In this document: positions 1 through 13,337 of the stretch, piece by piece
Layout of the letters: every line of letters begins with the position of its first letter
Numbering within the stretch: the first letter of the stretch is position 1
Assembly (NCBI GenBank): GCA_017444985.1
Contig: JAFSVK010000072.1
Coordinates: 1-13,337 of the forward strand
Direction: 5' to 3'
Source: Bacillota bacterium
GTDB taxonomy: Bacteria; Bacillota; Clostridia; Lachnospirales; CAG-274
Length of the DNA stretch: 13,337 bases
Notes under the pieces: model-generated
Databases searched by the model: none
Seen by the model: the letters and a program-made list of their open reading frames with translations, nothing else
Told to the model about the DNA's origin: nothing
Program-made: the position numbers and the translations under genes

Positions 1-216
1 ATAAAGAAGAAAAAGAAAATAAAGAAAACATTGAGAGTTGCCCTTCGGGTGATTGAAGTTGTTGATTTTTAAAAATAATTTTATTCTCGATCCTTTTGAT
101 GAAGATATCATACTTTTACTTGATTCAAAGCTATAAGTATCTTCAAAAATATCCGATATTTGATCATCTGTCAAACCTTTGTCGGATATTGCTGTTATTT
201 ATTCTTCGAAAAACCT

Positions 217-780
217 TTACTGTAATTTTTTTATGATACGTGCAGGGCTTCCCGCGATCAAAACATGGTCGGGAAAGGACTTTGTCACTACCGAGGAGGC
301 GGCTATCACGGTGTTATTTCCTATGGAGACCCCGGGAAGTATGGTAACACCGCCACCTATCCACACATCATCACCTATGGTAACGGGTTTGGGGATGCCG
401 ACTTTCTTTCTCCTTGCCTCCGCCTCCAAGGGGTGACCTATAGCATAAATACAGGTTTTTGGACCTATCATACAGTGTTTACCTATACGAATGGGGGCGG
501 CATCTAAAAAAACGCAGTCGAAATTCATAAAAAAATCATCACCCACAAAGATATTATAGCCGTAATCACAGTGGAAGGGTGGTTTGACGGCTATTTTCTC
601 ACCGCATTGCCCCAACAGCTCCTTTAACAGTTTGTGCCTTAATACTTCGTCTTCGGGGGAGTTGTTGAAACGGGAACAGAGTATGCGGGCATTTTTCTTA
701 TCATCCATAAGCTGTGGATCGTTTGTAAAAAAGGGTTCACCCATGGTCATTTTTTCACGTTCGGATCTTCTGTTCTCCAT
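217..780 (-). CDS. maa: Maltose/galactoside O-acetyltransferase (hexapeptide-repeat, left-handed beta-helix family)
   Basis: The 187-aa ORF aligns by eye along its whole length with E. coli Maa (EKEKM..GE, CDYGYNIF, FxNFDCVxLD, PIRIG, KPVTIG, NVWIGG, PARIIKKL). GGAGG lies 6 nt upstream of the ATG at 780. Confidence 0.85.
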   Translation of the reverse strand: MENRRSEREKMTMGEPFFTNDPQLMDDKKNARILCSRFNNSPEDEVLRHKLLKELLGQCGEKIAVKPPFHCDYGYNIFVGDDFFMNFDCVFLDAAPIRIGKHCMIGPKTCIYAIGHPLEAEARRKKVGIPKPVTIGDDVWIGGGVTILPGVSIGNNTVIAASSVVTKSFPDHVLIAGSPARIIKKLQ

Positions 781-865
781 AACTGCCTCCGTAAATTTTT
801 TGTATTTTCCAAGACTAACAGCGGAAGTTTCTGCAAAAGGATAAATAACTGTATTTGAAAATCGG

Positions 866-1271
866 TTATTTGACCTTGCCCTTTGCCTGTGCTCTTTCGG
901 TAAAATCCTCTACCGCTTCCAATATGTCCGGATCTGCAGAAGTTTCACCCAATGTTATCGCCCACTTCAAAAGCTCGGGGGATAATATTTCACACACCTC
1001 CAACAATCGCCTATAGTCCCAATCATCGAAAATTAAAAACGGTTTGTTTTATCTTGGGAGCTACCCATTCTGTGGGAAATTGTTTCAAACTATCTCTTGC
1101 AATAGTAATGGGCAGGATATTTGTGGGTCGACAAGCCCAAGAAAGCAGCTCTCCCACCACCTCGGAGGAGGTTTTTTCGGGGAGAGCCATAATTTCATTG
1201 GGCTTAGAGTATATGTCTTTATTTGCAATATTATTCAGTGAATCCGCTATAGCTTTTTCGTATACGTGCAT
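866..1271 (-). pseudogene. Hypothetical protein (~135 aa) interrupted by a 1-nt frameshift in an A5/T5 homopolymer (plus-strand 1035-1039)
   Basis: A minus-strand ORF (MHVYEKAIADS...KQTVFNFR*) stops at 1023-1025, but a second open frame (..FLIFDDWDYRRLLEVCEILSPELLKWAITLGETSADPDILEAVEDFTERAQAKGKVK*) continues to 866. Removing one T from the T5 run joins the two frames. AGGTG RBS precedes the ATG at 1271. Confidence 0.4.
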
Positions 1272-1339
1272 ACTACACCTGAATTTGTCGATTTAACAAT
1301 AAAACCTTTTGTCGGTTGTAATAGATCTTAACTTAGGGG

Positions 1340-1681
1340 TTAAAAATTACTTCCGTTATATCCCCAATGTTCCGTTTCAGCGTATCTTACATATATTCTG
1401 TTTTTCTCTATACCCAGAACGGACTTATAAGTATCGCATATCATTTCGGTCACTTTTGTAAATTTTTCTCTTGAGCCTTGTCCTAATATGGTCACTTCAA
1501 GCATAGCACAGGGAGTTTTACCGTCTCCGCCAAAATAAAGACTGCATTCATCCTTGATATTTACCATAAGATAGCTTTCGGGCTTTCCTATAGAAGCCAT
1601 GGCTTTTCCAAGCTCGGATTTTACCTTTTCCTTTTGTTCCTCATTCATTTTGATGTTTGTCATACTGTTTATAAAGGGCAT
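1340..1681 (-). CDS. MIF (macrophage migration inhibitory factor)/tautomerase-family protein
   Basis: 113 aa with N-terminal Met-Pro (catalytic Pro1). Conserved MIF pattern SY..V...L.FGG...PCA, RIYV.Y, GWNGS.F relative to human MIF. GGAGG RBS upstream. Confidence 0.75.
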   Translation of the reverse strand: MPFINSMTNIKMNEEQKEKVKSELGKAMASIGKPESYLMVNIKDECSLYFGGDGKTPCAMLEVTILGQGSREKFTKVTEMICDTYKSVLGIEKNRIYVRYAETEHWGYNGSNF

Positions 1682-1704
1682 GATACTTACCTCCGTTTAA
1701 AATT

Positions 1705-2403
1705 TTATTTTTCGGCTTTACACCGTCTGTTTCTCTCATCCACAAGTATGTCAAGGTTGGTTATTTTTGCGGATATACCTTCGTAGTTGTTGCTTGTTAT
1801 CATTTGCTTCAGCTCTTCCATACCCGTTGTTATACGCTGTTCAACATCCTCAAGGGCGGGAGATGAAACGGGATCGCTGTATTTTATTTTTTCCGAAAGT
1901 TTTTCAAGCTGTTTTTTTGCTTCCTTGTCTGTGCAGGAGGCAACGAGGCTGTCGGCATTAAGTCTGAATACTTTATTCTGCTGTATCTTCTGTTTGTTTT
2001 TAATATCTACACTCTCTACCATGTCTCTTGCATTATCCGTTGCAACAGTACCTATCAATACAGCCGCAAGCAGGAGAACACCCACCGTAACGGATATCCA
2101 AAGGGGAGTGATAACAGCTTTGTTCAATATAAATATAAAAAGTGAAAATACAAGCTGTGTTACGGTATAAATACAGCTTATCCTCAATATGGGAAAGCCA
2201 TATATTTTTGAGATCAAGCCACCTCTTTTGTTAAAGGCATAGTTTGTTATAAAACACCCTAATACTATGGAAACTTCGGCAAATGCAAAGGCTACCCATA
2301 CAGCGGGGGTTCTTGTGAAAGGTATTACGAAAAATAACACTGTAAATACCGCAAGTACGATACCGTAAACCGAAAATATGGAGTTTTTCTGCTTGGCTGA
2401 CAT
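1705..2403 (-). CDS. Membrane protein (4 predicted TM helices plus C-terminal coiled-coil/charged region), translationally coupled to the upstream SPFH gene
   Basis: Its ATG overlaps the stop of the upstream gene (ATGA at 2400-2405). Hydrophobic stretches in the first ~125 aa. No recognisable catalytic motif. Confidence 0.65.
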   Translation of the reverse strand: MSAKQKNSIFSVYGIVLAVFTVLFFVIPFTRTPAVWVAFAFAEVSIVLGCFITNYAFNKRGGLISKIYGFPILRISCIYTVTQLVFSLFIFILNKAVITPLWISVTVGVLLLAAVLIGTVATDNARDMVESVDIKNKQKIQQNKVFRLNADSLVASCTDKEAKKQLEKLSEKIKYSDPVSSPALEDVEQRITTGMEELKQMITSNNYEGISAKITNLDILVDERNRRCKAEK

Positions 2404-3941
2404 TATTCATCACCTCGTTTTTCTCCGCAATCGGGGCAGAAATTACTTGTTATGTCTTTTGCACCGCAGGGACAGTTCCAAGTACTTGGCTTTTCGGGTT
2501 TTTTAGCACCGCATTCGGGACAAAACTTGCTTGTGATATTTTTTTTGCCACACACCGAACAATCCCAAGAGTCTTCTTTTTCGGGCTTTTTAGCTCCGCA
2601 ATCGGGACAGAAATTACTTGTGATATTTTTTGTGCCGCACCGGTTACAATCCCAAGAGCCTTCTTTTTTAGGCTCCGTTTTTTTAGCACCGCAGTTGGGG
2701 CAGAAATTGGTGGTTATACCGTTTGTGCCACATTCGGGACATATCCAACCTTCGGGGATGTTACCCGCAACGATACTTCCAAACCCCGTACCTACCTGCG
2801 AAGTGTTCTCCATAATAGGATTGAGGGCTTCCCGTGTCATACCTATAACACCGCCCATTGCACCCAAAGTTACTCCGAGGCCTGCAATATCTCCGAGACC
2901 TCCGCCGCTGCCGCCTCCCGTTATGCCGTTTTGCATAGCTTCAAGCCCAACTTGTCTGGCGGTCTCCTGTTGATATGTATAGCCTTTCATTTTCATTTCT
3001 TCGGCTTCCGCTTGTGCTTGCATTTTGTAAGCTTCCGCCTCTGCCTGTGCCTTTATTTTAGTTGCCTCCGCTTCACCCTGTGCACCTACCATTTTCAGCT
3101 GTGCGGCGGTTTGCGCTTCAAGTATCTTTCTTCCCTGTGCCGCTTCCGCTTCGGCACGTCTTACCTCTTCTTCACGAACCTTTAAGGTCTTATCGGCAAA
3201 CTGTTGTTTAAGCCTCTTAAAATTAGGGTCATCGTCGGGGGTCATAACACTTGTAATGTAAAACTCGGGCATTACAAGACCGTAATCATCAAGGGTCTCG
3301 TTTATGACTTCCCGCATATTTTCCGAAAGTACGTCAAGATATGAGTCTATTTCAAGTATATTTATATTTTGCTCTTTTATAACTCTTGCAAGGTTTGACT
3401 TCACTCTGTTCATAACAAGAGCCTTGAATTTGCCTACCTTGTAGGAAACACCCTCACCAAGCAACTCTCCCTGTGTAAAGGAATCGGTAGTACCTACAAG
3501 TTTAAGTACCAACTTGCGAGAATCATTCACCCGCATATTAAAATTGCCGCAGGCACCTATTTCTATATGCAACCCCGAGGCGGGATCAAACAGGCGTACC
3601 TTGCTGTCGGTACCCCATTTTATACCCATTTGAGTGGTAAGGTTTATAAAATATACCTCGGAATGGAAAACACTTTCACCCCCCGTAGGTATTTTATATA
3701 GCTCACTTAAAATGGGGATATTTTGGGTCTCAAGGCTGTATCTGCCCGAGCCGAACAAGTCAAGGGCACGACCGTCATTGAAAAACAGTGCTTCTTGTGA
3801 TTCGTGTACAATAAGCTGAGAGCCCATATTGAAATCTTCAACGGGGTGCTTCCACACAAATACATCATTGCCGCCTTCATATTTTATAACGTTTATAATT
3901 TCTTTGCCGTTTTGTTTATCCTTTTTATCAAAAAATGCCAT
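2403..3941 (-). CDS. SPFH/band-7 domain protein of the YdjI type (COG4260) fused to four C-terminal tandem zinc-ribbon repeats
   Basis: The N-terminal 330 aa resemble B. subtilis YdjI (MxFF..., FxNxGR, VxFxN, WGT). An Ala/Glu/Gln-rich coiled coil and a Gly-rich linker follow. Then come four repeats of W-x-C-x2-C-G-x-x-x-I-T-[ST]-x-F-C-P-x-C-G-[AE]-K-[KR]. GAGGTGA RBS 5 nt upstream of the ATG. Confidence 0.85.
   Translation of the reverse strand: MAFFDKKDKQNGKEIINVIKYEGGNDVFVWKHPVEDFNMGSQLIVHESQEALFFNDGRALDLFGSGRYSLETQNIPILSELYKIPTGGESVFHSEVYFINLTTQMGIKWGTDSKVRLFDPASGLHIEIGACGNFNMRVNDSRKLVLKLVGTTDSFTQGELLGEGVSYKVGKFKALVMNRVKSNLARVIKEQNINILEIDSYLDVLSENMREVINETLDDYGLVMPEFYITSVMTPDDDPNFKRLKQQFADKTLKVREEEVRRAEAEAAQGRKILEAQTAAQLKMVGAQGEAEATKIKAQAEAEAYKMQAQAEAEEMKMKGYTYQQETARQVGLEAMQNGITGGGSGGGLGDIAGLGVTLGAMGGVIGMTREALNPIMENTSQVGTGFGSIVAGNIPEGWICPECGTNGITTNFCPNCGAKKTEPKKEGSWDCNRCGTKNITSNFCPDCGAKKPEKEDSWDCSVCGKKNITSKFCPECGAKKPEKPSTWNCPCGAKDITSNFCPDCGEKRGDE
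2406..2756. repeat. Four tandem ~78-87 bp coding repeats (zinc-ribbon modules) at the 3' end of the SPFH gene
   Basis: The units recur in the DNA (tttgtcccgaatgcggtgctaaaaaacc...). The protein shows four C-x2-C...F-C-P-x-C-G units. Confidence 0.7.
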
Positions 3942-3992
3942 TTTATCACCTCGATTTCTGGAAAGAACGCCCCCCCATATATTTGTGATACT

Positions 3993-4021
3993 ATTATATA
4001 TTAAACTATTGTATTTTGCAA
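3993..4021 (-). promoter_or_regulatory. Candidate sigma-A promoter for the SPFH operon (TTGCAA -17- TATAAT on the minus strand)
   Basis: On the reverse complement, ttgcaa(4021-4016)-17nt-tataat(3998-3993) lies ~50 nt upstream of the start codon at 3941. Confidence 0.35.
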
Positions 4022-4061
4022 TATAATTTATATCCGTAATATTGCAAAATAATATATTATA

Positions 4062-4218
4062 GGGTACCTCTAAAAAGTGCTATTGAAGTAAAATTGAGAT
4101 AGCTTGTTCGAGGACCGGGAAGTGGCTCGAAGCCAATGTAGAGCATTGGTGAGAGACATTGACGACTAACATGTGCAAGATAGTCAATTTTACGATTTAT
4201 GACTTTTTAGAGGTGCCC
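4062..4218 (+). repeat. Family-A structured repeat, copy 1 (157 bp, 17-bp terminal inverted repeats, MITE-like)
   Basis: GGGTACCTCTAAAAAGT...ACTTTTTAGAGGTGCCC. Near-identical to the copies at 7422, 11288 and 13206. Confidence 0.85.
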
Positions 4219-4267
4219 ATTATTTTATAATAAAAAATATAAAGATCACAATGGGAATTTAGTATAC

Positions 4268-4298
4268 AAAAAAACGCCGAGACTCTCGGCGTTTTTTT
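4268..4298. terminator. Bidirectional rho-independent terminator
   Basis: aaaaaaa-cgccgag-act-ctcggcg-ttttttt is a 7-bp GC-rich stem with a 3-nt loop, flanked by an A7 run and a T7 run. It lies immediately downstream of the stop at 4302 of the minus-strand gene. Confidence 0.7.
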
Positions 4299-4301
4299 CT
4301 G

Positions 4302-4934
4302 TCACTTTATTTTTGCACTACTTGGAATGCGGCTTAGTATATACTCTTTTACATAGTCAAAGTACTCTGTAGCTACATATACTTGATTGTGGCTTAGGGG
4401 TGCATTAAGGTAAATGGTATTTCTTGTACTTGATATTTTAACGCTTTTGACTTTTGAAAATTCTGTACTTATACTGTTTCTGACAGCATTTGAAATACCC
4501 GGCCCCGTCATAGATAAATTTCCTGAAACGGCACCTACAACGGCAGTAAACCAACCCATAGTCTTTGCTTTGTCAAATTGTTGACTCATTTGTCGGTGAA
4601 CTATGCCTTCTTCATCCATCTCAAATATTACCATATACTTCCACCCGTACTGTTTTGCAACCATAAAATAGGCTACTACACCAAGCACACAGAAAAACAT
4701 GGTAAGCATAACAAAAAGCTCTGTAAGAGAAATATAAGGTTTAAGTTCCTTGTTGTTTTCGACTACAAGAAGAAAAATTACAAAAAGCCAAACTATAAAG
4801 GCAGATATACATATTACCTTCCAGATAGTAAAAAGTATGGTGGAATTTTTCAGCATATCAAAATGATACGCCCAGCGATATTTTCCGTCACTGCAAAGGG
4901 TGGGGCTTTGGGCTGTAAACTCTTCTTTATTCAT
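4302..4934 (-). CDS. Hypothetical membrane protein (two TM helices, C-terminal soluble domain)
   Basis: The ORF track gives 230 aa. The likely true start is MNKEEF at 4934, 9 nt after a GGAAAGGAG RBS. Hydrophobic segments at FIVWLFVIFLLVV and VMLTMFFCVLGVVAYFMV. No recognisable family. Confidence 0.6.
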   Translation of the reverse strand: MNKEEFTAQSPTLCSDGKYRWAYHFDMLKNSTILFTIWKVICISAFIVWLFVIFLLVVENNKELKPYISLTELFVMLTMFFCVLGVVAYFMVAKQYGWKYMVIFEMDEEGIVHRQMSQQFDKAKTMGWFTAVVGAVSGNLSMTGPGISNAVRNSISTEFSKVKSVKISSTRNTIYLNAPLSHNQVYVATEYFDYVKEYILSRIPSSAKIK

Positions 4935-5067
4935 AATACACACTCCTTTCCTATTTTTTCCATACATTATACTAAAAAAATCATACATTATCAATGTATA
5001 TAAATTTTTTATTGTGATATGTTGGTAAATATTTTAAATAGAACTTTAAATTTTGATATAAATTATG

Positions 5068-5096
5068 TTGAAATATATTTATAAGTGTAGTATAAT
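5068..5096 (+). promoter_or_regulatory. Near-consensus sigma-A promoter (TTGAAA -17- TATAAT) for the GGDEF gene
   Basis: ttgaaa at 5068-5073, a 17-nt spacer, and tataat at 5091-5096. This leaves a ~95-nt 5' UTR before the ATG at 5195. Confidence 0.5.
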
Positions 5097-5194
5097 AAAA
5101 CGGATAGCTGATACCACTTTTGTGATACGGGACTTGTAGTCGCATTTTAAATAAAATCTGCACCGTAATATAACATAACTCGGGAGGAAAATAT

Positions 5195-6595
5195 ATGGAT
5201 CTTCAAAGTATAGTCGACCAATTTAATATAATATCTGCCGTATATTCCTTTGATATTCTGCCTGACGGAAGTCGCGGAGAAATAAGGCTTGAAGCTGCCA
5301 ATGCCGCAGACAGAGCTTATTTTGCCACATTTTATCCTTCGGTAAAATATTATCCCGGGATACCTATTCGCAAGTTTTTTACGGAATATAACTTGGAGGA
5401 TTTTATATACAGAGCAGCTACATCGGGAGATCCCCTTTACAGCTATGTAAATGCACAAAACAGTTGGATGAAAAGCTTCTTTCTGCCCTTTAAAACAGAT
5501 GAAGACAGGCCCTCATCCGAAGTGAAAACATATTACTGTCTGTATTTTTTGACAATAGACTCAAACTTAAATGCGGGAGATATGTCACAGCGATCTTTTG
5601 AGGTTTCATCGTCGGTATTGCAACTTAGTGTAAAGCTTCACCGCACAGAGGATTTTCGGGAAGCTATGGTTTCTTCCGTAGCGGAGATCAAGAATATTTG
5701 CAGATCGGAAGATTGTGCCATATATACCGTAGATCAACATAAAAGGGAATGTCGCTTGTTTAGTTTTGACGGTGAGCACGAAGAGTTTATAGAAAGCTTT
5801 GCTCAAGAAATGTCACGTACACCCTATGAGGTAGCTATGGCATGGGAAAAGGATCTTGACGGAAGCGATGGCTTGATACTTGATGATCTGAAGGTGGTTG
5901 AAGAAATAGATCCTGTATGGTACAGGTCTATGTGCAATTACGGTATTAAAAATATAATACTTTTTTCCATAAGATTTCATAATAATTTGGTGGGCTTTAT
6001 ATGGGCGGCAAATTATGACAACTCATATTCCTTGGAAATAAAGGAAACTCTTGAATTGGCATCCTTCCTTCTTGCGGCGGTAATAGCCAACCATCAGATA
6101 GTAAGTCATTTAAAAATAATGAGTACCATAGATGCACTTACTCAGGTACACAACAGAAATTCCATGAATGACAGAGTTGATAAGTTGGTATCGGGCAAGG
6201 AAAAGTTGCCCGAAAATATGGGTGTCGTATTTGCGGACATCAACGGCCTTAAGAGTGTTAACGATAATTTTGGCCATAGCGAAGGAGATAAGCTTATAAA
6301 AAAGGCAGCGGCACTTTTGAATATAGCCTTTTTAAGTTATGAAATATACAGAGCAGGCGGAGATGAGTTTGTGGTATTTTGTCCGAATGTCACAAAAGAG
6401 GAATTTGAAGGCTGTTTGGAACAACTTAAAAAACTTACCGATAACACCACGGATATAAGTATAGCTGTAGGTGCAAAGCATTTTTCGGGAAATTACGATG
6501 TGTTGCAAGCAATGCAGACGGTGGATAAGCTAATGTATATAAACAAAGAAGAGTACTATAAAAATCATCCTGAAATGGAGAGAAGAAGAACATGA
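5195..6595 (+). CDS. GGDEF-domain diguanylate cyclase with an uncharacterised ~300-aa N-terminal sensor region
   Basis: The C-terminal ~160 aa carry the GGDEF-domain signatures (..ADINGLKSVNDNFGHSEGDKLIK.., YRAGGDEFVVF). No RxxD I-site was seen immediately upstream of GGDEF. GGGAGG RBS upstream. Confidence 0.85.
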   Translation: MDLQSIVDQFNIISAVYSFDILPDGSRGEIRLEAANAADRAYFATFYPSVKYYPGIPIRKFFTEYNLEDFIYRAATSGDPLYSYVNAQNSWMKSFFLPFKTDEDRPSSEVKTYYCLYFLTIDSNLNAGDMSQRSFEVSSSVLQLSVKLHRTEDFREAMVSSVAEIKNICRSEDCAIYTVDQHKRECRLFSFDGEHEEFIESFAQEMSRTPYEVAMAWEKDLDGSDGLILDDLKVVEEIDPVWYRSMCNYGIKNIILFSIRFHNNLVGFIWAANYDNSYSLEIKETLELASFLLAAVIANHQIVSHLKIMSTIDALTQVHNRNSMNDRVDKLVSGKEKLPENMGVVFADINGLKSVNDNFGHSEGDKLIKKAAALLNIAFLSYEIYRAGGDEFVVFCPNVTKEEFEGCLEQLKKLTDNTTDISIAVGAKHFSGNYDVLQAMQTVDKLMYINKEEYYKNHPEMERRRT

Positions 6596-6670
6596 GATAA
6601 TAAGGGCAATGTCATCAACTTAAGGGTACTCTAAAACTAATATTAGGTTAGATTTTAACAAAAGGCATTA

Positions 6671-6775
6671 TACAACTTGTAGGGAACGACCAATGCACCG
6701 CAAAGATAGATGCGGGCAGGCGAAAGCCTGACTTTTGCGTAGCAAAAGTGCTGATGCGTGTAGTTCCGTCTGCAA
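6671..6775 (+). repeat. Family-B structured element, copy 1 (candidate small ncRNA or cis-RNA), in the 3' region of the GGDEF gene
   Basis: acaacttGTAGGGAACGACC...GTTCC core with internal GAAA-tetraloop hairpin. Near-identical to 13036-13135, and the 5' 20 nt are shared with 7660-7680. Confidence 0.6.
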
Positions 6776-6824
6776 ATTATGGAAAATTAGTAGTATTGAA
6801 ACAAATTGATAACATTGATGATAA

Positions 6825-6862
6825 TGGGGTGTGAAAATATGCATTCACACCCCATTTTGTTT
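6825..6862 (+). terminator. Rho-independent terminator (11-bp stem tggggtgtgaa/ttcacacccca, then TTTTGTTT)
   Basis: A perfect 11-bp inverted repeat with an 8-nt loop, followed by a T-rich tract. It lies downstream of the GGDEF gene and of B copy 1. Confidence 0.6.
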
Positions 6863-6871
6863 GGATCGTTT

Positions 6872-7363
6872 TTAAGCCCAAGGATCGTCTTTTTGCGGTA
6901 CACGTATGTCAGATAAATAGAATATCTCCCATACATACCATTTATCGCCTTTTCTTCGCAGGCTTAAGTATCTGTCGCTGTCGGCTCCCGAAGAGTGCAT
7001 ATATATTTTGGCATAGCCTTCGTTGTCGTATGAGTAGGGATTATCGAATACCGTTATGGTATAGGGCTGTGTGGGGGTATAGTTGTTTTCGGGGCTTGAA
7101 CCTTCAAAAAATGAAAATGTTTTATAGCCTTTTCCCGAAAGTCTGTCACGCAAAAATTGTGTTTCATACACAGACAGGGGTTGAGGACCTTTTAAAAAGT
7201 TCAACATTTCTATGGTTTTTTCTTTGTCTTTTTCATAGTTACAAAGCACAAGTACCGAAAGTGCCGCAGTAGCAAAAGGCGAGGTAAGTTCCGCCTCCTT
7301 AAGAGCTTGAAGTTGTTCTGTGTTTTCGGGTATAGCCGTGAATTTAAAAGTTTCGCTTTTCAT
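6872..7363 (-). CDS. Hypothetical protein (163 aa, no TM helices, no recognisable motif)
   Basis: Clean ORF with an AGGAGG RBS 7 nt upstream of the ATG at 7363. Confidence 0.65.
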   Translation of the reverse strand: MKSETFKFTAIPENTEQLQALKEAELTSPFATAALSVLVLCNYEKDKEKTIEMLNFLKGPQPLSVYETQFLRDRLSGKGYKTFSFFEGSSPENNYTPTQPYTITVFDNPYSYDNEGYAKIYMHSSGADSDRYLSLRRKGDKWYVWEIFYLSDIRVPQKDDPWA

Positions 7364-7421
7364 AAATACCTCCTCTTGATTTGTTTTCTTTTATTTTAAC
7401 ACCTTTAGAGTATTTAGTAAA

Positions 7422-7578
7422 GGGGACCTCTAAAAAGTGCTATTGAAGTAAAATTGAGATATCTTGTTCGAGGACTAGGAAATGGCTCGAAGCCAATGTA
7501 GAGCATTGGTGAGAGACATTGACGACGTAATCGGATAAGATAGCCAATTTTACGATTTATGAGTTTTTAGAGGTTCCC
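7422..7578 (+). repeat. Family-A structured repeat, copy 2
   Basis: GGGGACCTCTAAAAAGT...GAGTTTTTAGAGGTTCCC. Same architecture as copy 1, with a different 10-nt variable box (gtaatcggat). Confidence 0.85.
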
Positions 7579-7659
7579 TAAATATAAAATGCTAATTCTT
7601 TGCATATATATAACCATTAAAGGCATAAAAATAACTACGACAATATTTCAAAAACTTAT

Positions 7660-7717
7660 AACAATCGGTAGGGAACGACCCGCGTGTCGTTCCGGTGGGA
7701 ACAGCTGTTATTTTTTT
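7660..7717 (+). other. Internally deleted family-B hairpin (ggaacgac-ccgcgt-gtcgttcc) with an alternative gttcc/ggaac pairing, followed by a T7 run. Terminator-like or attenuator-like element upstream of the xyl operon
   Basis: It shares acaa.tcgtagggaacgacc with the full B copies but lacks the ~66-nt internal segment. This leaves a perfect 8-bp hairpin. T7 at 7711-7717. Confidence 0.35.
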
Positions 7718-7805
7718 GTAAAATATTATGGCTTATATGGAAATTTGGCGAAAAATAAGGGAAAGGTATTTTTGCTTTTTGAATATTGTTTATAAGAAAA
7801 TTCTT

Positions 7806-7834
7806 ATTGTATTTACTGCGATGTTGTGATAAAA
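7806..7834 (+). promoter_or_regulatory. Candidate promoter for the cupin-xylA-xylB operon (TTGTAT -17- TAAAAT with TG at -15/-14), overlapped by the inverted repeat ATAAGAA-aa-TTCTTAT (7791-7806)
   Basis: Hexamers at 7806-7811 and 7829-7834. The palindrome lies directly upstream of and overlaps the -35 hexamer, and could be an operator. Confidence 0.3.
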
Positions 7835-7897
7835 TATATAGTATAAAAACCTATTTGTAGGGGTTTGTATTCGAAGTATAAGTCTAAGGAGAAGGCT

Positions 7898-8233
7898 ATG
7901 AAGTATTATTCTGACAGTAACAAACTTATAGAGAAAATGGAAAAAGAGGGTGTAAATGCCTGCGATGTTCTTACGGAAGAAAACGGCTGTGTTGCGGGAT
8001 GCAAGGCAGGGTTTACATTTTACAGAACAACAGAGTACAAAAAGCCGGGTGTACATAAAGATCAAGAAGGCTTTTTGGTGCTTGAAGGACGGGGAAGGGC
8101 AAAATTCGGGAAAGAAGAGTTTGATATTTACCCGGGCCTTACAATGATAGCACCCCCGGGAGTTACCCACACCATAAAAAAGAACGAGGACAGCTGTGAT
8201 GTAAAAGTGTTTTGGTTTCACAGTGCAGTGTAA
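7898..8233 (+). CDS. Cupin-domain protein (111 aa)
   Basis: The start was taken at MKYYSDS, 7 nt after an AGGAGAAGG RBS. The G(x)5HxH...PxG...H-like conserved-barrel motif pattern (GFLVLEGRG...PPGVTHTI) is typical of cupin_2. Confidence 0.65.
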   Translation: MKYYSDSNKLIEKMEKEGVNACDVLTEENGCVAGCKAGFTFYRTTEYKKPGVHKDQEGFLVLEGRGRAKFGKEEFDIYPGLTMIAPPGVTHTIKKNEDSCDVKVFWFHSAV

Positions 8234-8246
8234 AAGGAGGAGAGCG

Positions 8247-8474
8247 ATGCCCTATATAGCGATAAAATCCTACCCTAAGGATGAAGAGATCAAAAAAAGA
8301 GTAATAGAAGGAATAAATAAGGTACTTCTTGAGGAAATGGGATGTTCTCAAGAAGCAATATGTATATCTATGGAAGAAGTAAAGCCCGAAGAGTGGGTTG
8401 AAAAGGTGAGGACACCCGAAATAGAGCCTAATAAAGACAAAATGAAAATACTTTACGGAAAGAAAATGTATTAA
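8247..8474 (+). CDS. 4-oxalocrotonate tautomerase-family protein (75 aa, Pro1)
   Basis: [10 protein letters not shown]... begins 7 nt after an AAAGGAGGAG RBS. The size, the N-terminal Pro and the beta-alpha-beta pattern fit the 4-OT family. Confidence 0.65.
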
Positions 8475-8488
8475 AGAGAGGTAAAGAT

Positions 8489-9805
8489 ATGAAAGAATAT
8501 TTTCCAATGGTAAAAAAGGTGGTTTACAAAGGCAAGGATTCAAAGGATCCCTTTGCATTTAAATATTACGATGCGGAAAGGATAGTAGGCGGTAAGCCTA
8601 TGAAGGAGCAACTTAAATTTGCCATGAGCTGGTGGCATACACTGTGTGCTGCGGGAGCGGATCCCTTTGGAGCGCCTACTATGGACAGAAGTTACGGTGG
8701 CTTGACAGACCCTATGGAAATTGCAAAGGCAAAGGTTGATGCAGGCTTTGAGTTTATGTCAAAGCTCGGTATAGAGTATTTTTGCTTTCACGATGCGGAT
8801 ATAGCGCCTGCCGGGGAAACTTTTGCCCAAACAAAAGAAAACTTTTGGAAGATAGTTGAATACATAGAGACCAAAATGAAGGAAAGCGGTATAAAGCTTT
8901 TATGGGGTACGGCAAATTGCTTTAACGAGCCGAGATATATGCACGGAGCGGGAACATCCTGTAATGCTCATAGCTTTGCCTATGCGGCGGCACAGATCAA
9001 AAATGCCATAGAAGCCACCGTAAAACTTGGAGGTAAGGGCTATGTGTTCTGGGGCGGAAGAGAGGGCTACGAGACCCTTTTGAATACGGATATGGCTCTT
9101 GAAACGGACAATATGGCAAGACTTATGCGTATGGCGGTGGATTTCGGCAGAAGCATAGGCTTTGAAGGAGATTTTTACATAGAGCCAAAGCCTAAGGAAC
9201 CCACAAAACATCAGTACGATTTTGATGCCGCAACTGTTTTGGGCTTTTTAAGAAAATACGGTCTTGAAAAAGATTTCAAACTTAATATAGAGGCAAATCA
9301 TGCCACCTTGGCAGGCCATACCTTTGAACATGAGTTGAGGGTAGCAAGAACAAACGGCGCTTTCGGAAGTATAGATGCCAACAGCGGAGACCCTAATTTA
9401 GGTTGGGATACGGATCAATTCCCTACGGATGTATACTCGGCTACACTTTGTATGCTTGAAGTTATAAAGGCGGGAGGCTTTACAAACGGCGGACTTAATT
9501 TTGATGCTAAGGTACGCAGAGGTTCCTTTACCTTTGAGGACTTGGTTTATGCATATATAAGCGGTATGGATACCTTTGCCTTAGGTCTTATAAAGGCTTA
9601 TGAAGTGATCGAGGACGGCAGGATAGATGATTTTGTAAAACAGAGATACATAAGCTACAGCAAGGGTATAGGTAAAGACATTGTAGAGGGTAGGGCAAGC
9701 CTTGAAAGTCTTGAAAAGTATATACTTGAAAATGACAAGGTAACTATGGAAAGCGGAAGGCAAGAGTACCTTGAGACCATATTGAATAACATACTCTTCG
9801 GGTGA
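8489..9805 (+). CDS. xylA: Xylose isomerase (class II)
   Basis: 438 aa. The N-terminus [24 protein letters not shown] and the motifs FHD.D, WGGREG and the catalytic His/Asp/Glu spacing match the Firmicutes/Thermoanaerobacter XylA pattern. Confidence 0.95.
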
Positions 9806-9809
9806 TATT

Positions 9810-11312
9810 ATGAGATATATTATAGGCTGTGATATAGGTACTTCGGGAACGAAGACGGTTTTATACAATGAAAACCTTGAACCTCTTTTTCAAGCCCTCG
9901 GGGAATACACCCTTCACCAGCCACAAAACGGTTGGGCTGAGCAAAACCCCAAGGATTGGTATGATGCGGTCATAAGCACTGTAAAAAAAGTTGTGGAAGA
10001 AGCTAAGGTAGATAGCAGTGATATAAAGGCTATAGGTCTTTCGGGACAAATGCACGGCCTTGTCATGTTGGATGAAAACAACAATGTTTTAAGACCTGCC
10101 ATAATATGGTGCGATCAGCGAACGGGAAAAGAGTGTGTGGAAATAACACAAAAAATAGGCGCAAGTCGACTTGTGGAAATAACGGCAAATCCCGCTCTTA
10201 CAGGCTTTACCGCATCTAAGATAATGTGGGTCAAAAACAATGAGCCCCATATTTACCGCAAGTGCAAACATATACTTCTTCCAAAGGATTATATACGATT
10301 TATGCTTACGGGAGAGTATGCTACGGATGTGTCGGATGCAAGCGGTATGCAGCTTTTGGATGTTCCAAAAAGATGTTGGTCGAAGGAAGTATTAAATAAG
10401 CTTGATATAGATGAGAGTCTACTTGGTTCGGTGTATGAGTCCTGTGAAATAACGGGATATATTACCGAAAAAACAGCCTCCCTCACAGGTCTTTCCACAA
10501 ACACCGCCGTAGTGGGGGGAGCGGGAGACAATGCGGCGGCAGCTATAGGAACGGGCATTGTAAAAGAAGGCAGAGCCTTTACCACCATAGGCACCTCGGG
10601 AGTGGTATATGCTCACACCGATAAGCCTGTTATAGATCCAAAGGGCAGAGTCCACACCTTTTGCTGTGGGGTAAAGGGTAAGTGGCATGTTATGGGAGTT
10701 ACCCAGGCTGCGGGTTCTTCTTTAAAATGGTTTAAAAATACCTTTGGAGATACCGACTACTCTCTTATAAACCATATGGTTAAAAATTCACCTATAGGTG
10801 CTGACAGGCTTATATATCTACCCTATCTTATGGGTGAGAGGACACCTCATCTTGATGAGGATTGCAGAGGTGTTCTTTTCGGCTTATCCGCAAGCCACAG
10901 CCGTGGGAACATATATCGCAGCGTAATGGAGGGAGTAGCCTTTTCTCTTACGGATTGCAAGGATATACTTGAAGAAATGGCTATAGAAGCAAAGGATATG
11001 ACAGCTTGCGGCGGAGGCAGTGAAAGCGATATTTGGATGCAAATATTGGCGGATTGCTACAACTGTGATATAAAAAGACTAAGTAGCGCACAGGGTCCCG
11101 CCTTAGGTGTTGCAATATTGGCAGGTGTAGGTGTCGGGATATTTCCCGATGTGGTCTCCGCCTGCGATAAATTTATAAAGCCTGCAAGTATCACTAAAAG
11201 CCAAAAAGAAAATGCAGAAAAGTACAAGAAGATACATAATTTATACAAAAAACTCTATTTGGATCTAAAAGAGGATTTTAAATTATTGGGGAGCTCTAAA
11301 AAGTGCTATTGA
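9810..11312 (+). CDS. xylB: Xylulokinase (FGGY carbohydrate kinase)
   Basis: 500 aa. N-terminal GCDIGTSGTK (FGGY phosphate-1 loop), an internal GGGA...N motif and the C-terminal FGGY domain. The last ~8 codons and the stop lie inside family-A copy 3. Confidence 0.9.
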   Translation: MRYIIGCDIGTSGTKTVLYNENLEPLFQALGEYTLHQPQNGWAEQNPKDWYDAVISTVKKVVEEAKVDSSDIKAIGLSGQMHGLVMLDENNNVLRPAIIWCDQRTGKECVEITQKIGASRLVEITANPALTGFTASKIMWVKNNEPHIYRKCKHILLPKDYIRFMLTGEYATDVSDASGMQLLDVPKRCWSKEVLNKLDIDESLLGSVYESCEITGYITEKTASLTGLSTNTAVVGGAGDNAAAAIGTGIVKEGRAFTTIGTSGVVYAHTDKPVIDPKGRVHTFCCGVKGKWHVMGVTQAAGSSLKWFKNTFGDTDYSLINHMVKNSPIGADRLIYLPYLMGERTPHLDEDCRGVLFGLSASHSRGNIYRSVMEGVAFSLTDCKDILEEMAIEAKDMTACGGGSESDIWMQILADCYNCDIKRLSSAQGPALGVAILAGVGVGIFPDVVSACDKFIKPASITKSQKENAEKYKKIHNLYKKLYLDLKEDFKLLGSSKKCY

Positions 11313-11444
11313 AGTAAAATTGAGATATTTTGTTCGAGGACCGGGAAATGGCTCGAAGCCAATGTAGAGCATTGGTGAGAGACATTGAGGACTAACATGT
11401 GCAAGATAGCCAATTTTACGATTTATGACTTTTTAGAGGTTCCC
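11288..11444 (+). repeat. Family-A structured repeat, copy 3 (overlaps the 3' end of xylB)
   Basis: GGGGAGCTCTAAAAAGT...GACTTTTTAGAGGTTCCC. Its variable box is identical to copy 1 (taacatgtgc). The A-rich left TIR is read as ..GSSKKCY* in the xylB frame. Confidence 0.85.
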
Positions 11445-11475
11445 TATTGTCCAATATTTAAAAGGAGTGAATATT

Positions 11476-12915
11476 ATGAAAAGAAAAGTAATGAATTTTG
11501 CCGCACTTGTGTTAATGGGTGCAACACTTATGTCTGTAGGTGCTTATGCCGAGGGTATCGGTATAGTTATAGACGGAAAAAATATTGAGACCGATGTAGC
11601 ACCTATTATAACACCCGAGGGTAGGACTATCGTTCCCTTAAGAGTGATATCCGAAAACTTAGGTGCAAATGTGGAGTGGGACGGTACCACAAAAACAGTT
11701 ACGGCAGAGAAAGAGGGAGATGTTATAAGCCTTGTTATAGGAGAAGAATATCTTGACTTTAACGGCAAGACATTAGAACTTGACTCTCCCGCGCAAATAG
11801 TCAATGAAAGGACTATGGTGCCTATAAGAATAATATCCGAGTGCTTTGGCTGTAATGTAGATTGGGAGGCTGAAACAAAGACAGTCGTGATCTCTTCCGC
11901 CGAAGAGAAGAAGGAGACCAAACTCCCTAAATATACCGCAAACGAGGACAAATACATTGCAGCCGCTGAGAGTAAAATACTTGAATATTCCGAATATTAC
12001 TCTCCCGCCGACCTTTCTCAACCCGTAGTCACTATTGTAAAGGTAGATGACAGCGATCCCGATGATATTAAGTGTTACGGTAGTTTTTGGATACTTAATT
12101 ATGATCTTAAAGGCAAATTGCTTGAATTTGTAAGCGGTGGCTCCTATCCCGGCTGTATGCACATGAAAAAGGGTGCTGATGGAAGTATTGAAGTGACAAG
12201 CTTTGATATAGTAGAGGACGGCGAGAACGGACAAGAGTCTCTTGAAAAGATATGTGGCGGAGATAAAGAACTTGCCGCACAGGTAACTAAAGCATTGGAG
12301 TTAAATGAGGATGTAAGAAAAGAAGGCTTAAAAGCTTACGTTAAAGCCAACAAACTTGATATAGAAGGCTACAAGGATTACGGGTATGATGCCGTATACT
12401 TTGATACCGAAGGACCTACGGAAGCTACGGAGGACCTCATAGGCGAAGAGGTACCAAATGAATTTATATTTTCCAGCGGTGCGGGAGGTTGGCGCACGGT
12501 TTTAAGGCTTAACAAAGACGGCTCTTTTACAGGCAACTATTCCGATTCCGAAATGGGAAGTACGGGAGAGGGCTACCCCAAAGGCTCTGTCTATGTGTGT
12601 GATTTTTCGGGTAAGTTTACGGACATAAAAAAAGATGGACAAAACTACACCATGAAGTTGGAAAGCCTTGAATCGGAGAAAAAAGAGGGTGAAGAGTGGA
12701 TAGAAGATGAGATCAAATACATCTATTCCACACCCTACGGCATAGAGGGCGGTAAGAATTTCGTCATCTACGCCCCCGACACTCCCCTCGAAGGCTTCTC
12801 GGAAACATTCCTAAGCTGGTGGCCCGGAAGATACAGCGAAAACAAAGACCAAAAAACATTGGGCTTTTACAGTATTTGTAATGTGGAAACAGAAGAAGGA
12901 TTCTTTGCGGATTGA
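11476..12915 (+). CDS. Secreted protein: signal peptide, two copper-amine-oxidase N-terminal-like 'stalk' repeats, and an uncharacterised ~330-aa C-terminal domain
   Basis: Start taken at MKRKVMNF, 8 nt after an AAAGGAG RBS. The signal peptide ends with AYA-EG. Two ~55-aa repeats (...TIVPLRVISENLGANVEWD.. / ..TMVPIRIISECFGCNVDWE..) are characteristic of the Cu_amine_oxidN1 stalk domain common in clostridial cell-surface proteins. Confidence 0.75.
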   Translation: MKRKVMNFAALVLMGATLMSVGAYAEGIGIVIDGKNIETDVAPIITPEGRTIVPLRVISENLGANVEWDGTTKTVTAEKEGDVISLVIGEEYLDFNGKTLELDSPAQIVNERTMVPIRIISECFGCNVDWEAETKTVVISSAEEKKETKLPKYTANEDKYIAAAESKILEYSEYYSPADLSQPVVTIVKVDDSDPDDIKCYGSFWILNYDLKGKLLEFVSGGSYPGCMHMKKGADGSIEVTSFDIVEDGENGQESLEKICGGDKELAAQVTKALELNEDVRKEGLKAYVKANKLDIEGYKDYGYDAVYFDTEGPTEATEDLIGEEVPNEFIFSSGAGGWRTVLRLNKDGSFTGNYSDSEMGSTGEGYPKGSVYVCDFSGKFTDIKKDGQNYTMKLESLESEKKEGEEWIEDEIKYIYSTPYGIEGGKNFVIYAPDTPLEGFSETFLSWWPGRYSENKDQKTLGFYSICNVETEEGFFAD

Positions 12916-12952
12916 GAAGTAATATAAAAATTCTTCGTATTTATAAAAAATG

Positions 12953-12990
12953 AAAAAACCTCTCGCAGAGCTAACTGTGAGAGGTTTTTT
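12953..12990 (+). terminator. Rho-independent terminator (bidirectional: A6, 10-bp stem with one G-U pair, T6)
   Basis: aaaaaa-cctctcgcag-agctaa-ctgtgagagg-tttttt, immediately downstream of the stop at 12915. Confidence 0.75.
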
Positions 12991-13035
12991 CATAATAATC
13001 CAATAGAAAACTTTATATTTAACATAGAATATAGC

Positions 13036-13135
13036 ACAACTCGTAGGGAACGACCATTGCACCGCAAAGATAGATGCGGGCAGGCGATAGCCTGACTTTT
13101 GCGTAGCAAAAGTGCTGATGCGTGTTGTTCCGATG
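13036..13135 (+). repeat. Family-B structured element, copy 2
   Basis: acaactcGTAGGGAACGACC...GTTGTTCC. It differs from copy 1 at ~6 positions, including a compensatory A->T in the 3' half of the closing stem. Confidence 0.6.
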
Positions 13136-13205
13136 GGAGTAGACACTAATTTTTGACTCAAAAATATAAAGATTACTATTGATCTTTAGTATTATACTTT
13201 TTTAT

Positions 13206-13337
13206 GGGTACCTCTAAAAAGTGCTATTGAAGTAAAATTGAGATAGCTTGTTCGAGGACTAGGAAATGGCTCGAAGCCAATGTAGAGCATTGGTGAGAGA
13301 CATTGACGACGGACTCGGGCAAGATAGCCAATTTTAC
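13206..13337 (+). repeat. Family-A structured repeat, copy 4 (truncated by the window end)
   Basis: GGGTACCTCTAAAAAGTGCTATTGAAGTAAAATTGAGATAGCTTG... is identical to copy 1 over the left half and has its own variable box (ggactcgggc). Confidence 0.8.

Follow-up and report, generated by a model that had tools for sequence, protein, structure and literature searches.

Family B is a non-coding repeat with two long copies and one short copy in a 13,337-nt stretch of the genome of a Bacillota bacterium (Clostridia, Lachnospirales; contig JAFSVK010000072.1, positions 1 to 13,337, referred to here as the window). It is probably a composite, nested palindromic repeat at the DNA level and not a regulatory RNA, and it has probably spread by way of single-stranded DNA. 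The repeat has two layers, an outer hairpin and an inner module, each with its own structure, distribution and insertion contexts, and neither is associated with particular genes. A first-pass annotation of the same DNA had proposed a riboswitch or attenuator. Its observation stands as regards the repeat, the conserved helices and the absence from Rfam, while the position that it took as compensatory, one of its hairpins and the proposed switch did not hold up.

Long copy 1 (6679-6768, + strand) consists of a GTAG tag (6679-6682), the 5' arm GGAACGAC (6683-6690), a 64-nt module in the loop, and the 3' arm GTAGTTCC (6760-6767). Long copy 2 (13043-13132, + strand) likewise has a GTAG tag (13043-13046) and paired arms, with the 3' arm GTTGTTCC at 13124-13131 and the module at 13056-13119, where the loop of the second hairpin is GATA. 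As first noted, the long copies have conserved ends in common: blastn aligns them with 95.9% identity over 97 nt (6672-6768 and 13036-13132), and a repeat search gives 90% identity across 115 nt (6654-6768 and 13018-13132). The similarity begins 25 nt 5' of GTAG, and since this flank (6654-6678, with its partner at 13018-13042, + strand) is common to both long copies, the composite must have been duplicated as a unit of at least 115 nt. The short version expected near 7660-7700 is found at 7668-7694 (+ strand). It is a plain hairpin, the "empty" outer form, with GTAG at 7668-7671, the arm GGAACGAC at 7672-7679, the loop CCGCGT and the arm GTCGTTCC at 7686-7693. It has GTAGGGAACGACC and GCGTGTnGTTCCG in common with the long copies and retains only their ends, as GTAGGGAACGACC-C-GCGTGTCGTTCCG; the 13-mer GTAGGGAACGACC has three exact occurrences, all on the + strand. 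The 3' arm of the short copy (GTTCC) also pairs with GGGAAC, forming a hairpin GTTCC-GGTG-GGAAC at 7689-7702 that is followed by a T-rich run and was flagged as terminator-like.

The predicted pairing of the arms is correct: GGAACGAC faces GTAGTTCC in copy 1, and the arms face GTnGTTCC generally. The variable base in this 3' arm, which is C, T or A in the three copies, had been read as compensatory change and as a sign of selection on the helix. It is a one-sided change opposite an invariant G, giving in turn a Watson-Crick pair, a wobble (G.T at 13126 in copy 2) and a mismatch (G.A at 6762 in copy 1), and the base is C in 63 of the 67 related hairpins described below. The A and T of the long copies are best read as decay and not as compensation.

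Judged by its sequence, the outer stem is a GTAG-tagged hairpin of the repetitive extragenic palindrome (REP) type, dispersed in the intergenic DNA of many Clostridia and Oscillospirales genomes. REPs are defined by GTAG or GTGG lying 0-2 nt 5' of a 7-20-bp stem with a loop of 2-5 nt, and they occur in BIME-like clusters or as REPIN doublets (PMC6006769; PMC3733652). All three copies in the window have GTAG directly 5' of the arm GGAACGAC. The short copy has an 8-bp stem with every position paired and a loop of 6 nt (4 nt if C7680 pairs with G7684), which is essentially a REP stem and loop. The long copies depart from this, with G.A or G.T in the stem and 69 nt between the arms versus the 2-5 nt of a REP loop.

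A scan with the query ACAANNNGTAGGGAACGACC over one genome per species returned 70 stretches. About one third are chance matches in unrelated phyla, and the remainder come from Clostridia metagenome-assembled genomes (MAGs) and isolates, the hosts being Ruminococcus, Candidatus Fimenecus, Ruminococcaceae UBA7075, Acetanaerobacterium elongatum, Geosporobacter, Sedimentibacter and "Eubacteriales". GTAG was part of the search pattern, and its conservation in other genomes is therefore no independent result. The hairpin is present as 67 copies across 49 loci in other Clostridia and Oscillospirales genomes, with several MAGs supplying four to nine loci apiece, and three copies are seen within about 33 kb of the source organism. 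Of the 67 copies, 46 have GTCGTTCC as the 3' arm and 62 have a spacer of 4-5 nt, the longest spacer being 9 nt; none of the 67 holds an insert or long interior in its loop. CTAC lies within 12 nt upstream in 23 of them. Many copies are strung together with other G+C-rich hairpins, which have CTAC at their end or GTAG at their start (for example gggcgggcgtggaaacccgcccCTAC-aaccc-GTAGggaacgacc), and inverted doublets occur at three loci (L031, L036 and L057), so that these other genomes hold the many dispersed, extragenic, clustered or doubled copies by which REPs are known. The hairpin also occurs on two viral contigs in IMG/VR. In one Eubacteriales MAG (L025:3212-4002 and 6158-6834) it lies within 219-nt tandem repeats and dense clusters of GTAG/CTAC hairpins, with nine copies in 8 kb on one strand.

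Family B thus resembles the REP, BIME and REPIN elements of E. coli, Pseudomonas and Stenotrophomonas, which are mobilised by REP-associated tyrosine transposases (RAYT/TnpA-REP), in having GTAG directly 5' of an 8-bp, G+C-rich, short-loop hairpin that is extragenic, multi-copy, clustered with GTAG/CTAC hairpins in alternating orientation, found as inverted doublets and typically located after genes. It differs in its hosts, since the 2013 survey of GTAG repeats covered Proteobacteria, Cyanobacteria, Chloroflexi and the PVC group and had no Firmicutes (PMC3733652). The long form differs further in its mismatch or wobble pair and in the 64-nt structured insert in its loop, versus a largest described loop of 27 nt (PMC3733652). 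Group 1 RAYT genes have been reported in Clostridia (PMC5581495). No partner RAYT gene was found for family B in a weak motif search of the fetched loci.

The interior of the long copies is an independently dispersed, uncatalogued repeat that is widespread in uncultured gut-type Clostridia. It is a four-way junction made of a 3-bp closing helix, P1, and three hairpins, H1 to H3. The module of copy 1 occupies 6692-6755 (+ strand; family structure from 57 and 50 distinct relatives, and DNA fold). P1 pairs GCA (6695-6697) with TGC (6749-6751), H1 is CCGCA (6698-6702), the loop AAGATAGA and TGCGG (6711-6715), H2 is CAGGC (6717-6721), GAAA and GCCTG (6726-6730), H3 is CTTTTGC (6732-6738), GTA and GCAAAAG (6742-6748), and the tail is TGAT (6752-6755). 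H2 and H3 had both been recognised earlier, at 6717-6730 and 6732-6748. A further "agca-aaag-tgct" hairpin finds no support in the relatives, where its bases belong to H3 and P1, both of which covary.

A search with the H1 19-mer ACCGCAAAGATAGATGCGG found 119 copies in 104 metagenome stretches and one IMG/VR contig, a handful of them chance or coding matches. The other copies have one common architecture of 58-71 nt. P1 is GCA/TGC, CAA/TTG, GAA/TTC or GGAA/TTCC; H1 is CCGCA-AAGATAGA-TGCGG with a purine-rich, conserved loop; H2 is variable, with 4-7 bp; H3 is C(T)TTTGC-loop-GCAAA(A)G with variants; and the tail is TGA(C/A/T). Diverged modules recovered with nhmmer carry GCGGC-AAGATAGA-GCCGC (L086) or CCGCAC-AAGACA-GTGCGG (L104) as H1. 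Because the stem is exchanged and the loop kept in diverged copies, the H1 loop looks like the sequence-specific part of the module. The L086 case is an IMG/VR contig on which two diverged, inverted modules (129-292) flank a terminator-like hairpin and adjoin an HNH endonuclease gene, one of them with its H1 stem fully swapped and the loop unchanged. Rfam had no match on the modules of 20 loci with canonical copies, even at E<=5, and Rfam 15 gave nothing in the window at the gathering score or at E<=10, in keeping with the earlier failure to match the element to known motifs.

Covariation strongly supports the cloverleaf. A plain MAFFT alignment with RNAalifold misaligned H2 and H3 and recovered H1 alone, and it was replaced by an alignment in which the hairpins were parsed and padded with N. 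Among 57 distinct modules, pairing is Watson-Crick in 1186 of 1196 paired cells, with three G.T and two A.C. The formal count over 50 distinct sequences has 99.3% of cells paired, 13 of the 23 pairs with both-sided change, and 161 cells with both-sided changes. None of 500 shuffles reached the observed percentage paired or the observed covariation score, and controls slid along the alignment paired in 30-44%. The homologues and the covariation on which the structured element of the first-pass annotation depended both exist, the former numerous and the latter strong.

The conserved switch does not find the same support. A "three-way competition" had been proposed in which CGCAAAG, located at 6699-6705 and not at 6695-6701, pairs alternatively with CTTTTGCG. 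This alternative helix is pairable in 86.6% of cells and has no covarying pair, and its central pair (columns 12-53) is broken in 22 of the 50 relatives, while the same changes are compensated inside H3. Because the H3 changes that break the alternative helix are compensated by the H3 partner, the four helices coexist as a cloverleaf-like junction.

Modules occur singly, in head-to-tail arrays and nested in larger inverted repeats, and are often found at contig ends, as expected of a high-copy repeat. Arrays have a period of 63-69 nt (four units in L092, three each in L120 and L166, and others in L110 and L164), and the inverted repeats that enclose modules include AATTCAGTGGG...CCCACTGAATT and CAAGCCTT...AAGGCTTG. 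Identical composite copies adjoin different genes on different contigs. An integron attC site was considered and rejected, since the closing helix covaries (GCA/TGC, CAA/TTG, GAA/TTC) rather than keeping AAC/GTT, and the units are tandem. CRISPR was likewise rejected for the 69-nt arrays, whose "spacers" are themselves conserved hairpins. About 0.9 kb from the array in L120 there is a SAM-I riboswitch (7002-7086, - strand; 54.3 bits) that is unrelated to the module; no other Rfam hit in the window or the 20 loci exceeded the gathering score. Some module-bearing intergenic regions (L161:960-1320, L097:960-1230 and L150:10840-11180) are packed with other short perfect palindromes, many with GTA, GAA or GCA loops, such as aacctatttc-gta-gaaataggtt, which suggests that these genomes harbour further kinds of such hairpin repeats.

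It could be argued that the long form is an old REP variant whose loop expanded in place, like the large-loop GTAG-14 REPs of Bradyrhizobium, and that the likeness to metagenomic copies reflects common descent from a single composite. Self-complementary loops reaching 27 nt have been described for some REP families (PMC3733652), and the common 25-nt flank does indicate that the long copies of the window arose by duplication of the composite. This account is very improbable, since none of the 67 related REPs has a long loop, and the roughly 120 module occurrences without REP arms, together with three other unrelated host contexts, largely refute it.

Several results favour an element that is single-stranded and acts at the DNA level. 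G.T pairs are nearly absent from the modules despite many double changes. Read on the + strand, about 60% of the loops in H2 and H3 are GNA triloops with a closing C-G pair. This is the mini-hairpin d(GCGNAGC)/d(GCGAAAGC), which is very stable in DNA and is known from the G4 origin and from ssiA of RSF1010 (PMC13037366). All four relative orientations of module and gene occur, and the neighbouring genes are unrelated; they include RtcB with DUF2828, a C5 methylase with an EcoO109I-type endonuclease, Macro, Fic and a phage HNH endonuclease. Other neighbours, read by eye and not from the Pfam scan, we take to be a MiaB-like radical-SAM enzyme and MurE/MurF-like and LigA-like proteins. One strand is common to the three family B copies, a further module of the source organism and six copies of the family A repeat over about 33 kb in which gene directions are mixed. 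The GC skew of that strand is +0.084 in the window, which is weak evidence because coding bias contributes to it.

The module or the 90-nt composite might instead be a structured non-coding RNA with helices selected as RNA, serving as a small RNA, as a 3'-untranslated-region (UTR) stabiliser with a specific protein partner, or as a riboswitch-like cis element; we consider this unlikely. Both long copies lie 3' of genes, as first described. Copy 1 sits between the stop codon of a gene for a GGDEF cyclase (6595) and an intrinsic-terminator-like hairpin (6823-6856, + strand), and is therefore within the likely 3' UTR of that gene, a position that would suit an RNA, as would the GAAA tetraloop of this copy, the four-way junction with its strong covariation, and terminator-like hairpins after some metagenomic copies. 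The long copies also fold far better than shuffled sequences on both strands, with RNA z-scores of -3.9 and -4.4 on the + strand; the corresponding DNA z-scores are -4.6 and -4.7. Against an RNA stand the count of only three G.U in about 1100 paired cells, the four orientations to unrelated genes, and the copies that lie within an open reading frame (ORF), between a ribosome-binding site (RBS) and its ATG, or in head-to-tail arrays. Copy 2 is beyond a terminator hairpin (12950-12993), and no promoter-like site was found upstream on the + strand. One array would again suit an RNA: three modules (L166:7873-8075) lie within the 455 nt that separate a DUF2828/DUF7788 gene from an RtcB ligase gene. 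They are antisense to both genes, and Rfam has nothing there. Y-like RNAs are known in this type of context.

The more specific reading as a riboswitch or attenuator fares no better. Family B is like the c-di-GMP-I/II riboswitches and other such RNAs in that several conserved helices meet in a junction of about 65-90 nt. It differs from them in having almost no G.U pairs, no Rfam match, no fixed 5'-leader position, no common class of downstream gene and no conserved alternative helix. The stem that was to close the RNA is a REP-type hairpin that occurs in many genomes without the interior, and the interior is dispersed on its own beside unrelated genes in all four relative orientations, with pairing that is nearly all Watson-Crick and with DNA-type C-GNA-G loops. 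The suggested connection to c-di-GMP came from the GGDEF gene next to copy 1, and copy 2 is not near any GGDEF gene.

Three of the contexts in which modules are found point to their arrival by insertion. The first is the REP loop: the hairpin occurs empty at 7668-7694 and in the 67 copies elsewhere, and in the long copies it is precisely the loop that holds a whole unit, A(A/T)TGCACC...GTGCTGAT. The second is a REP-free module of the source organism, found by blastn (L080:21337-21405, the same as L083:18790-18858), about 9.5 kb past the end of the window and 75 nt 3' of a MobA/VirD2-type relaxase gene. Compared with the interior of the long copies, its H1 is identical, H2 is wholly swapped (CAGGC/GCCTG to GATTGC/GCAATC) and H3 has one more G-C pair. 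This module separates the RBS GGGAGG from the ATG of the next gene, a promoter-like TTGCAA-17-TATAAT lies ahead of the RBS, and the gene caller had put the start at an in-frame ATG inside the module. Removing the module in silico gives GGGAGGTAT-CATTATG, with an ideal spacing of 7 nt. The third is a 69-nt unit (L137:6639-6707) that is in frame and splits the nuclease domain of a relaxase (PF03432) at the H-x-D motif, between ...YQYVIAVH and LDREHTHVHIVMN. Once the unit is taken out and a nearby frameshift is corrected, the protein matches positions 1-132 of the PF03432 profile (E=4.9e-40), while the uncorrected match ends at 87. The frameshift, at an A7 run, and a stop codon mark the gene as a pseudogene. 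Translational bypass or an intron was rejected for this insert, which has an in-frame TAG and no matching take-off and landing codons in a gene that carries the frameshift and the stop as well.

Target duplication is not visible at L080:21337-21405, at L137:6639-6707 or at 6692-6755 of the window, and the left flank of modules usually ends in A-pyrimidine. Gene interruption was rejected as a general rule, the L137 relaxase being the exception: when each module was deleted in silico with a grid of possible boundaries, a long reading frame running through both open flanks seldom resulted, and most copies are therefore intergenic. The sequences expected at empty sites are GGGAGGTAT joined to CATTATGAACG for the RBS-ATG site, codons for AVH joined to those for LD in the relaxase, and GTAGGGAACGACC-NNN-GTGTCGTTCC for the two window loci. 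An IMG/VR search for the empty RBS-ATG site and for a looser module pattern returned nothing.

The two relaxase genes also bear on a reading in which the module is a single-strand DNA signal of mobile elements, that is, a priming site (single-strand initiation, or ssi, signal), a single-strand origin or a single-strand promoter active after conjugative transfer or in rolling-circle replication, with the chromosomal copies as relics or co-opted. The loop composition is strand-specific, the C-GNA-G and GCGAAAGC mini-hairpins are characteristic of the G4 origin and RSF1010 ssiA (PMC13037366), and an inverted pair of modules stands beside the HNH endonuclease gene of an IMG/VR viral contig. Such a signal is nevertheless quite improbable here. 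Most copies flank housekeeping genes (for example murE/murF-like, ligA-like and miaB-like), tandem arrays and nesting in REP loops are unexpected for origins, and a BLAST search with a two-unit module array had no match in 72,556 plasmid records (PLSDB) or 50,697 phage records (INPHARED). Compared with the ssi signals of phage G4 and RSF1010 (ssiA/ssiB), the module has the same d(GCGNAGC)/d(GCGAAAGC) loop chemistry on one strand and two copies with relaxase genes. Its copies are chromosomal, dispersed and found in arrays and REP loops, and no primase or replicon context was seen.

From these features we infer a single-stranded DNA mode of spread, the kind of enzyme and a possible effect on neighbouring genes. 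In the source organism, the 64-nt module would have entered the loop of a REP hairpin, and the composite was then duplicated once. The module would fold in single-stranded DNA, on the strand bearing GTAG and the GNA loops, and copies of it would enter sites where a single strand is exposed, hairpin loops among them, leaving no target duplication. Copying is probably the work of an enzyme of the HUH/Y1 type (RAYT/IS200 kind), or the process may be another replication-linked, single-strand one. Tandem arrays would arise when a unit lands beside another unit. REPs in 3' UTRs are known to stabilise the upstream mRNA, and resident copies may at most be passive hairpins, copy 1 for instance protecting the 3' end of the GGDEF mRNA.

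Several points weigh against a nested DNA-level repeat that spreads in this manner. The structural alignment was built with the hairpins known, which favours structure, and H1 was fixed by the search pattern, which makes its apparent invariance partly circular. The scarcity of G.T could partly reflect young, little-diverged copies, and the tetraloop of copy 1, its transcribed 3'-UTR position and the significant RNA folds leave room for a role at the RNA level. The copy count and strand pattern in the source organism come from about 33 kb only. A search for a RAYT/Y1 gene gave no credible match to the motif [YF]H..xR[GAS] in about 1 Mb of fetched loci, a weak test that included no whole genome. 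No fixed target tetranucleotide or conserved target sequence could be defined from the module flanks, and none of the module sites yielded an empty/filled pair, so that we infer insertion from context only.

The module resembles IS200/IS605-derived miniature elements, BOX modules and ssi signals in different respects and fits none of them. Like the PATE-type relatives of IS200/IS605, it is very small and hairpin-built, it shows no target duplication at the three informative sites, it lies in regions expected to be single-stranded, its copies are co-oriented, and it can be arranged in tandem. It differs from them in having three different hairpins, not similar left-end and right-end hairpins, and in that no TnpA (in the weak motif search), no defined target tetranucleotide and no empty site were found for it. 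With the BOX elements of Streptococcus pneumoniae (boxA-boxB(n)-boxC) it shares a modular build rich in hairpins, an intergenic location close to genes in a Gram-positive host, and a unit capable of tandem iteration. It differs in being a closed four-way junction that also nests in other hairpins, and to our knowledge the two have no sequence similarity. A tentative further possibility is that the 60-70-nt cloverleaf is an undescribed class of minimal element living as folded single-stranded DNA, either the smallest known hairpin-guided mobile element, one that could enter hairpin loops, RBS-ATG spacers and ORFs and assemble into tandem arrays, or a new strand-specific single-stranded DNA signal. 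It would be common in uncultured gut-type Clostridia and would here have colonised a REP hairpin.

The non-coding repeats of the window fall into two families, and family A is the second. Its unit of about 166 nt is bounded by 17-nt terminal inverted repeats, GGGTACCTCTAAAAAGT ... ACTTTTTAGAGGTnCCC, between which the sequence is highly conserved, and it has no Rfam match. Four copies lie in the window (4051-4218, 7411-7578, 11277-11444 and 13195-13337, the last cut by the window end) and two outside it (L001:167-322 and L075:19502-19648), making six in about 33 kb, all on one strand. Contigs of other assemblies begin or end inside family A (L003, L004, L078 and L079). The repeat looks like a miniature inverted-repeat transposable element or a structured RNA. 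Families A and B adjoin twice (7578-7668 and 13132-13195), the short REP lying about 90 nt 3' of the second A copy and long copy 2 lying 63 nt 5' of the fourth, which may reflect a shared insertion preference or a larger composite.

The window itself has a low G+C content (40%) and chromosomal genes of an ordinary kind. Several metagenome contigs from ENA and Logan, up to 46 kb long, carry the same locus, and a neighbouring gene on them has an SLH domain, in keeping with a Clostridia-type organism. The genes of the window encode a Mac/hexapeptide acetyltransferase, a MIF-like protein, an SPFH/zinc-ribbon protein, a cupin, an FGGY kinase, an isomerase that is XylA2-type by its Pfam labels, the GGDEF cyclase (5195-6595, + strand), a DUF6935 protein (6872-7363, - strand) and a Cu_amine_oxidN1 protein (11467-12915, + strand). 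ARAGORN found no tRNA or tmRNA in the window. The gene at 2403-3941 (- strand) contains three to four tandem coding repeats of 84-93 nt (2418-2748), matching repeated zinc-ribbon motifs (Pfam Zn_ribbon) towards the C terminus of its product, the SPFH/Band-7 protein. A 116-aa ORF (12811-13161, - strand) that covers long copy 2 and the terminator has no Pfam match and is almost certainly spurious.

These results remove a false riboswitch candidate beside a GGDEF gene and extend GTAG-type REP hairpins into the Clostridia and Oscillospirales, where REPs are little documented. The module, being abundant, very cleanly covarying and without an Rfam family, will keep surfacing in structured-RNA screens, and repeats of families A and B break metagenome assemblies, several contigs ending inside them. 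If the module does act as single-stranded DNA, it would offer a compact system for the spread of hairpin repeats, for their mutual nesting, and for their tolerance between an RBS and a start codon.

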